Shown here: positions 1,066 to 1,340 of the stretch, in pieces
How positions within the stretch are numbered: position 1 is the first letter of the stretch
Layout of the letters: every line of letters begins with the position of its first letter
From: Escherichia phage RCIP0319
DNA length: 64,000 bases
Sequence record: PV464738.1
Strand: one strand, 5' to 3'
The notes under the pieces: generated by a model
What the model was told of the DNA's origin: nothing
The model's input: the letters and a program-made list of their open reading frames with translations, nothing else
Database searches by the model: none
Program-made: the position numbers and the translations under genes

Positions 1066-1340
1066 GTATAATGACGTATCATCCGTATCAAGTAAGTAGT
1101 TGTTTTCAAAAGAATCTTACGGATGATACGGATGATACGCGTTGCCGCGATACTTTATAGGAATTCAAATAAATTAATTTAAAATTATATATCTAATTTA
1201 ATTTTATTTTTTTATAAACTCTTATATATGAAAAGTATCCGTATCATCCGTATCATCCGTAGCACACCAGTGATAGCGCGGCTTATACACCGATACGGAT
1301 AAAAATACGCCTCATTTTATCCGTATCATCCGTATCACAC
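1066..1340. repeat. direct and inverted copies of ACGGATGAT-type 9-mers flanking an AT-rich core
   Basis: cgtatcatccgtatc (1066), cttacggatgatacggatgatacg (1110-1140), gtatccgtatcatccgtatcatccgta (1233-1262), ttatccgtatcatccgtatca (1316-1340); AT-rich 1145-1230. Confidence 0.6.

Follow-up and report, generated by a model that had tools for sequence, protein, structure and literature searches.

Escherichia phage RCIP0319 carries two intergenic loci in which opposed copies of a 9-bp word flank an AT-rich core and which, judged by their sequence, are paralogous copies of one cis-acting element. The best explanation, to which we give about even weight, is that they are twin Rep-type replication origins and that the copy proximal to the small terminase gene (terS) also hosts the packaging cut. 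Our analysis covers a stretch of 64,000 nucleotides of record PV464738.1, referred to as the window. The phage is a Wifcevirus, a ~68-kb Escherichia coli myovirus with WFH, WFC, FEC19, ECML-117, Mansfield and Bas98-101 as relatives, and Wifcevirus is distantly related to Pbunavirus.

Architecture of the two loci

The word ACGGATGAT has ten exact matches in the 64-kb window against 0.62 expected, a number reached in none of 100 shuffles. Nine of the ten lie within two intergenic loci, at ~1064-1356 (locus 1) and 55035-55343 (locus 2), and the tenth is found at 706, within the upstream fibre gene. Degenerate copies, TACGGATAAA and TACGGATAAT, are also present at both loci when one mismatch is allowed. 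The direct and inverted repeats around an AT-rich stretch noted in a preliminary description of this DNA are thus borne out, and the search for the 9-mer elsewhere in the window did not reveal a generic dispersed repeat. A dispersed element of the REP/MITE type was rejected, as nine of the ten exact copies sit in two syntenic loci that occupy the same positions in four genera. The two loci comprise the following features.

1078 (minus), 1119 (plus), 1128 (plus), 1243 (minus), 1252 (minus) and 1325 (minus): exact ACGGATGAT copies of locus 1
55141 (plus), 55150 (plus) and 55321 (plus): exact ACGGATGAT copies of locus 2
1064-1088, minus strand: outer left repeat block of locus 1, GCGTATAATGACGTATCATCCGTAT, reverse complement of 55319-55343 (92% complementary)
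1118-1139, plus strand: left arm of locus 1, two tandem 9-mers (TACGGATGA TACGGATGA TACG) inside the 29-bp block
1140-1239: AT-rich core of locus 1, with a GCCGC box (1144-1148), a TATAGG box (~1152-1166) and a T-run
1240-1261, minus strand: right arm of locus 1, two inverted tandem 9-mers, perfect complement of 1118-1139
1262-1356: outer right modules of locus 1, with repeated units, a dyad and GCGGC boxes at 1278 and 1351
55035-55142, plus strand: left flank of locus 2, with two GCGCCGCGCCTGG boxes (55035 and 55110) and a dyad, TACGGATAGGTTTTTATCCGTA (55073-55094)
55140-55161, plus strand: left arm of locus 2, two tandem 9-mers, same as 1118-1139
55162-55275: AT-rich core of locus 2, containing the virion left end between ...AATTAACTCC and ATTTTGAATT, at 55210/55211
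55276-55343: right arm of locus 2, with inverted CGTATTATCCGTAAGAT (55276-55292), GCGGCAA (55313-55319) and TACGGATGATACGTAATGATACGC (55320-55343)

The arms of locus 1 form a perfect 22-bp inverted repeat (1118-1139 and 1240-1261), each arm consisting of two tandem 9-mers, which encloses a 100-bp core; a third, degenerate copy of the 9-mer lies beside the right arm (1234-1243). Farther out, a 38-nt unit made of 9-mers, CACAC and GCGCGGCT occurs twice (1246-1283 and 1319-1356), and a dyad, TACGGATAAAA...TTTTATCCGTA, spans 1294-1325. Locus 1 accordingly has two repeats on each side, and locus 2 has two on the left and one inverted repeat plus further copies on the right.

Both loci contain the exact 29-bp block GAATCTTACGGATGATACGGATGATACGC (1112-1140 and 55134-55162). 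The preliminary description had extended this block to 35 bp (1105-1139 and 55133-55167), but its 'nnTTnC' extension fails on reading both sequences and its coordinates were off by 1-7 bases. Pairwise alignment revealed a likeness wider than had been claimed and, in a multiple alignment, the two loci are collinear over ~200 bp, sharing the order of an arm, a GCCGC/TATAGG box, the AT core, a T-run/CTA box and an inverted arm. Read as its reverse complement, the right part of locus 2 (55276-55343) moreover corresponds to the left part of locus 1 (1064-1130), and both loci are collinear with both loci of Pantoea phage PA1 in the multiple alignment. The open reading frames that cross the repeats (1002-1160 and 54799-55206, '...LTDDTDDT...') are not considered coding, because the words occur on both strands and relatives carry other words there.

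The cores are the two least stable duplex segments of the 64 kb. Computed at 100 bp, locus 1 ranks lowest in stability (1149-1249, z = 4.59) and locus 2 second (55183-55283, z = 4.34), and the third-ranked segment has a z of 3.3; positions 1169-1229, within the locus 1 core, are 95% AT. By this calculation, both cores are candidate unwinding elements of ~100 bp. GC, AT and cumulative skew over the window track gene orientation and transcription and give no origin signal. The pentamer GCGGC is 2.3-fold over-represented in the window (296 against 131 expected) and GCGGCAA 3.5-fold (44 against 12.5), and across the whole window neither has a replication-like strand polarity beyond gene orientation. 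In every genus examined, the orientation of the pentamer flips across each AT core, with GCCGC on the left and GCGGC on the right.

A 21-nt noncoding box, CTATGGTGCGCCGCGACTGGG, is related to the GCGCCGCGCCTGG boxes of the locus 2 left flank and is identical in the E. coli phages WFH and Mansfield and in Erwinia phage TropicalSun, where it is also present inverted on the far side of the core. Boxes of this type lie at 55035-55122 in the window, at 2097-2125 and 2388-2412 in L014 and at ~1480 in L005. The box includes a CTGGG core, as reported for phage-specific promoters of Pbunavirus 14-1.

Conservation of the layout and change of the repeat word

The 564-bp intergenic region that holds locus 1 is at least 94% identical in 28 of 28 Wifcevirus records and at least 99% identical in 16 of them, and locus 2 is more variable on its left side among Wifcevirus genomes. 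The pair of loci, one upstream of terS and one upstream of the protease gene, is conserved in Kylevirus, Myosmarvirus and Pbunavirus. The TerS proteins of these relatives are 31-42% identical, and both intergenic regions keep the architecture with a different repeat word.

TACGGATGA: word of Wifcevirus
ATAACCGTT: word of Kylevirus (Pantoea phage PA1)
TACTTTTCG: word of Myosmarvirus (Erwinia phage TropicalSun)
GGTAATTT: word of Pbunavirus (Pseudomonas phage PB1)

Each word occurs in both regions of its own genus and is absent from those of the other genera, yielding a strictly diagonal matrix for the four genera, in all of which the 9- and 10-mers common to both regions exceed 300 of 300 dinucleotide-preserving shuffles. 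Further variants of the word, in the same layout, lie upstream of terS in Salmonella phage PCSE1 and in metagenomic relatives (TCTTGCGGATA), and still others in integrated PB1-like prophages of Caballeronia and Cupriavidus. Constant between genera are GCCGC to the left of the core, GCGGC(AA) to its right, and the TATAGG and TCTAATA boxes. Xanthomonas phage XcP1 apparently has only one copy of the element. To the right of that origin-like element, XcP1 also has four to five tandem 11-bp repeats, CAGAACAACCC (L024 3461-3526, record ~54960-55025). A scan of IMG/VR with the 14-nt word of lineage L027 returned chance single matches only.

The concerted replacement of the word at two loci lying 16-20 kb apart points to a sequence-specific DNA-binding protein that co-evolves with it. 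That both loci are putative binding arrays of one such protein, possibly a replication initiator, is strongly supported. The preliminary description had suggested a binding site for a common regulator or initiator; the part of this suggestion that gained ground is that of arrays for one protein, to which the genus-specific words at both loci and the Rep-type anatomy point.

Gene neighbourhood, genome end and replication genes

Locus 1 had been placed between tail-fibre and head modules, which is roughly right: a fibre-like ORF (10-882) and a 45-aa ORF lie on one side and the prohead protease gene (1447-2856) on the other. Locus 2 follows a long block of small rightward genes and has terS downstream. 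Three signals were located around the loci.

992-1014, plus strand: terminator-like hairpin before locus 1 (consensus scan), closing the fibre/small-ORF unit
1395-1423, plus strand: sigma-70-like promoter (TTGCCT-17-TATAAT) of the protease-capsid-tail operon, downstream of locus 1 and separate from it
54808-54826, plus strand: terminator-like hairpin before locus 2, at the end of the long rightward small-gene block

The terminator-like hairpin at 992-1014 would shield locus 1 against read-through. Promoters equivalent to that at 1395-1423 are visible in the sequences of relatives, and each locus precedes the near-consensus sigma-70-like promoter of the next gene by 130-330 bp. The cores themselves were rejected as sigma-70 promoters, as the consensus scan gave no match inside either of them. 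Rfam, searched at gathering thresholds over the whole window, gave no family match, and Pfam gave no DNA-binding domain in the ORFs neighbouring the loci. Elsewhere in the window, an exact 127-bp tandem duplication (two copies, 100% identical) occupies 18690-18943, in a tail or baseplate gene region.

The preliminary description had overlooked that the left end of virion DNA falls within the locus 2 core, next to terS. The features of this region are listed below.

55211-58527, plus strand: direct terminal repeat (DTR), one copy in the window, with terS as its first substantial gene
55571-56044, plus strand: small terminase gene terS (annotated in Mansfield), homologue of E217 TerS (PDB 7UXE, E 1.1e-31)
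55550, 55564, 56050, 56230, 56347 and 56434, plus strand: copies of TTGCACTAT

The DTR boundaries were carried over from WFH and Mansfield by exact matches of the end sequences. The WFH record holds both repeat copies (3,701 bp, exactly identical), and the Mansfield record was opened at a 3,673-bp DTR predicted by PhageTerm. Both records begin at one base, between ...CAATTAACTCC and ATTTTGAATTAATTT, which corresponds to 55210/55211 in the window; this point lies 49 nt beyond the tandem 9-mers on their right side and no more than ~8 bp from the middle of the locus 2 core. In Myosmarvirus, for which PhageTerm repeats of 3,566 bp (Serratia phage MTx) and 3,559 bp (Serratia phage MyoSmar) have been reported, the terS-side repeat boundary likewise lies inside the locus 2 core of that genus. 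Three Pbunavirus records from different laboratories (BrSP1, PA11P1 and phage 109) open at one identical base within the PB1 locus 2 core; they carry less weight, since one record may take over its start convention from another and the termini of Pbunavirus are a matter of dispute. In the 75%-related metagenomic lineage L026, the cut-site box, AATTAACTCC/ATTTTGAA, has survived the drift of the repeat words; locus 1 lacks this box. Among the records and reports of ends, none places a terminus at locus 1, and no Carpasinavirus record opens within the XcP1 element. According to one review, E217 TerS has no appreciable DNA binding in vitro (PMC9611059).

The right DTR boundary, at 58527 (...GGGCATGGGTCTTT/TGGTGCG), has neither 9-mers nor an AT-rich core. 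Homology between Wifcevirus genomes stops at the genome end (~55195-55221), where Bas98 and Bas99 match only rightward, and the unique right genome end is therefore a mosaic, variable region. A 36-nt inverted repeat (57127-57162 and 57681-57716, 89% complementary) brackets ORF 57267-57635 in the terminal repeat and looks like a cassette boundary or paired regulatory sites.

A second repeat family surrounds terS. The word TTGCACTAT has six exact copies in the 64 kb, all on the plus strand and all at 55550-56442, inside the DTR; two of them overlap the start codon of terS, and the remaining four are found farther downstream, in ORFs on the minus strand. It is found at the same place in Mansfield, WFH, Bas99, two metagenomic lineages and Pantoea phage PA1, the last of which carries 8-10 copies of TTGCACTA. 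Because the word is unchanged between these genera it is not genus-specific, unlike the 9-mers. By its sequence and position, it may be an alternative terminase-recognition array or a regulatory array; as the former, it would leave the ACGGATGAT-type words to an initiator.

The window also encodes two replication proteins.

40982-42064, plus strand: RepB'-type primase gene (Pfam PF16793, 1.9e-36; PHROG 'DNA primase'), upstream of the helicase gene
43374-45044, plus strand: gene for a VapE/D5-type SF3 helicase of 556 aa (Pfam PF05272, 1.6e-28), the candidate reader of the words

The only sequence relative of the helicase among solved structures is SaPI1 Rep bound to DNA (7PDS, 4e-11). Its AlphaFold (AF2) model (pLDDT 88.8) matches 7PDS over ~480 columns in Foldseek (E 1.8e-16; next hit 1e-7), and in this predicted form the 556-aa protein is a full-length structural homologue of SaPI1 Rep. 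Residues ~436-504 of the model follow an H-beta-H-H-beta-beta pattern, and we read the C-terminal region as winged-helix-like. Conservation is lowest in the C-terminal domain, where mean identity is 22%, as against 56% in the ATPase, a pattern expected if DNA specificity changes.

The primase gene precedes the helicase gene, which is the pri-rep order of SaPIs. In XcP1, the order is pri-rep-element, with the element beside rep and 2.5 kb, or seven small genes, from terS. The rep-element order also holds for the terS-proximal copy in PB1, Myosmarvirus, L027 and the Caballeronia and Cupriavidus prophages; in Wifcevirus, PA1 and L026 the element is beside terS and ~10 kb of small genes separate it from the helicase gene. 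In five of six lineages, terS directly follows locus 2, and locus 1 adjoins neither replication gene in the window and is nowhere directly downstream of rep. As the element stays with the helicase gene in XcP1 and with terS in Wifcevirus, linkage cannot decide between helicase and TerS as its partner; nor can co-variation separate the two, since nearly all relatives keep helicase gene, element and terS in synteny. The homologues of the helicase found in bacterial genomes belong to PB1-like prophages in which terS follows again, and the two proteins therefore remain confounded there as well.

Candidate roles and comparison with known systems

If the loci are twin Rep-type origins, each element would present at least two tandem 9-bp words per side, in opposed orientation, around an AT-rich unwinding core of ~100 bp. 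The Rep-like SF3 helicase (43374-45044) would read the words via its variable C-terminal domain, after which priming would fall to the RepB'-type primase (40982-42064). Locus 1 would serve as an internal origin, ~16 kb from the genome left end, and locus 2 as a second copy with a locus-specific cut-site box, AATTAACTCC/ATTTTGAA, at which the left end of packaged DNA, and with it the terminal-repeat boundary, would be made just upstream of terS. In the simplest account, one platform would be used at both loci and the cut-site box would have been added at locus 2 only. We infer that the helicase is most likely the binder of the words and that replication most likely starts at the loci. This reading is favoured by the anatomy of the 9-mers and their concerted change, the meltability of the cores, the presence of two copies per genome as in P4 and SPP1, the Rep homologue with its variable C-terminal domain, the gene order of XcP1, the reported lack of DNA binding by E217 TerS, the availability of TTGCACTAT as a separate candidate for terminase recognition, and the position of both loci between a terminator-like hairpin and a separate promoter. 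The genome end inside the locus 2 core, mapped in two genera, is a pac- or cos-like trait that requires an extra assumption if the element is an origin. We also count against an origin the ~10 kb between locus 2 and the helicase gene, with terS adjacent, the position of locus 1 beside neither replication gene, words longer than SaPI iterons, the lack of an origin signal in GC skew, and the apparently single copy in XcP1, which makes the second copy not universal.

Origin and genome end could also be mechanistically coupled, which we consider improbable. A Rep-type origin at the left boundary of the 3.3-3.7-kb terminal repeat would then fire within concatemers, so that the repeat would be locally re-replicated and each packaged genome would receive its own copy; terminase would cut the melted or Rep-loaded core rather than a TerS-DNA complex, and locus 1, without the cut-site box, would be a pure-origin paralogue. 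Were this true, origin-terminus coupling would bear on how long direct terminal repeats get duplicated.

The main alternative, which we consider unlikely, makes the element a platform for terminase recognition of the P1 pac or SPP1 pacL-pacC-pacR type, in which TerS or an accessory protein would occupy the words to the left and right of a bendable AT core that TerL would cut in its middle. Locus 1 would be a second, uncut site serving, for example, synapsis, a check of concatemer maturity (as proposed for T4 gp16) or regulation. The virion left ends in the locus 2 cores of Wifcevirus (WFH, Mansfield) and Myosmarvirus (MTx, MyoSmar), the three Pbunavirus records that open there, the position immediately upstream of terS in five of six lineages and the retention of AATTAACTCC/ATTTTGAA in the sister lineage L026 all agree with such a platform, whose repeats flanking a central cut reproduce the layout of P1 pac. 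It fits less well that locus 1, 16 kb away, has the full architecture and no reported terminus, that the XcP1 element is seven genes from terS and beside the helicase gene, and that the E217 homologue of TerS has, according to the review cited above, no appreciable DNA binding. Extreme AT-richness and opposed iterons mark origins rather than pac sites, and a separate, terS-centred repeat, TTGCACTAT, is available to the terminase.

The concerted evolution of the word requires only some co-evolving protein, and the arrays might instead be operators or organisers bound by another phage protein (a transcription regulator, an insulator or a nucleoid-type protein) that would control or insulate the downstream units, terS and the protease-capsid-tail operon. 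Consistent with this, both loci lie between a terminator-like hairpin and the near-consensus sigma-70 promoter of a late-type gene, a phage-specific promoter motif reported for Pbunavirus 14-1 has a CTGGG core, and in relatives locus 2 is flanked by boxes that contain CTGGG. We nevertheless hold such a role to be unlikely: the promoters are 130-330 bp past the arrays and not inside them, other late promoters, those of the terL-portal region in Mansfield and Bas99 among them, yielded no 9-mers, the neighbouring ORFs offer no candidate regulator with a Pfam DNA-binding domain, and the terminus and the extreme meltability would be left unexplained. It is highly improbable, finally, that the loci act as recombination hot spots or consist of selfish or duplicated repeats to which no dedicated protein binds, given that architecture and position are kept in at least four genera and in prophages while the word is replaced in concert, that locus 1 is at least 94% identical in 28 of 28 Wifcevirus records, and that each genome has two such loci only. 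The preliminary description had raised recombination hot spots, and Wifcevirus homology does break inside locus 2, but only at about the genome end, which fits a variable genome end and not a dedicated recombination site.

Neither the elements nor a mapped replication origin or packaging site are described in the searchable literature on Wifcevirus and Pbunavirus, a search that did not extend to Ceyssens et al. 2009 and Lokareddy et al. 2022; in that literature, Pbunavirus termini are called "contradictory" and the placing of origins is a guess drawn from GC skew. A Rep/SF3-helicase iteron origin in two paralogous copies, one of them at a terminal-repeat boundary, would appear to be new. Phages of the genus Pbunavirus rank among the Pseudomonas phages most used in therapy, and those of Wifcevirus have been reported to replicate remarkably fast. 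In these elements there are two precisely placed candidate origins and a packaging start located to the base. They indicate, for the engineering and rebooting of phages, which cis elements to leave intact and where to open genomes, and the word of each lineage forms with the helicase C-terminal domain a natural specificity-swap pair.

SaPI origins lie immediately downstream of rep, with the primase gene upstream, and consist of 6-12 short lineage-specific iterons around an AT-rich centre, with at least two iterons per side in opposite directions (PMC9371898). [quoted passage not shown] The loci described here resemble them in that lineage-specific short repeats, at least two per side and opposed, flank an AT-rich centre. 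The putative initiator-helicase is related to SaPI Rep both by sequence and by its predicted fold over the full length, its gene is preceded by that of the primase, and in most relatives this gene is followed directly by the terS-proximal copy of the element. They differ in their words (8-9 bp, against 5-6 bp for SaPI iterons) and in having two copies per genome, neither of which adjoins the helicase gene in this phage. One copy moreover contains the virion DNA end, the primase is of the RepB' type, and the origin role is here a prediction from sequence.

In phage P4 (ori and crr, bound by the alpha protein) and in SPP1 (oriL and oriR, bound by G38P), two distant loci likewise have the same initiator-binding repeats and AT-rich DNA. 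P4 alpha, also an SF3 primase-helicase, binds the origin through a C-terminal winged helix. The sharing of repeats beside AT-rich DNA by two distant loci of one phage genome is common to all three phages, whereas the sites are unrelated in sequence and those of P4 and SPP1 are not known to coincide with a packaging cut.

In P1 pac and SPP1 pacL-pacC-pacR, which adjoin the terminase genes, short repeated words flank a central region of cleavage. Locus 2, and not locus 1, is like them in that words flank a core that holds the virion end near a terminase gene. In contrast to these systems, the TerS of the present family reportedly lacks appreciable DNA binding in vitro (PMC9611059). A second, complete and uncut copy 16 kb away and an extremely AT-rich core further distinguish the element from both pac sites.

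Phage T7 has an internal primary origin, as well as AT-rich, origin-like phiOL and phiOR beside its terminal repeat, which have been implicated in concatemer processing. T7 uses phage RNA-polymerase promoters and not iterons, its proteins are unrelated, and its repeat is 160 bp, against ~3.5 kb here. The resemblance is thus a loose one, between terminal-repeat phages that each combine an internal origin-like locus, at ~15-22% of genome length, with an origin-like element proximal to the genome end.
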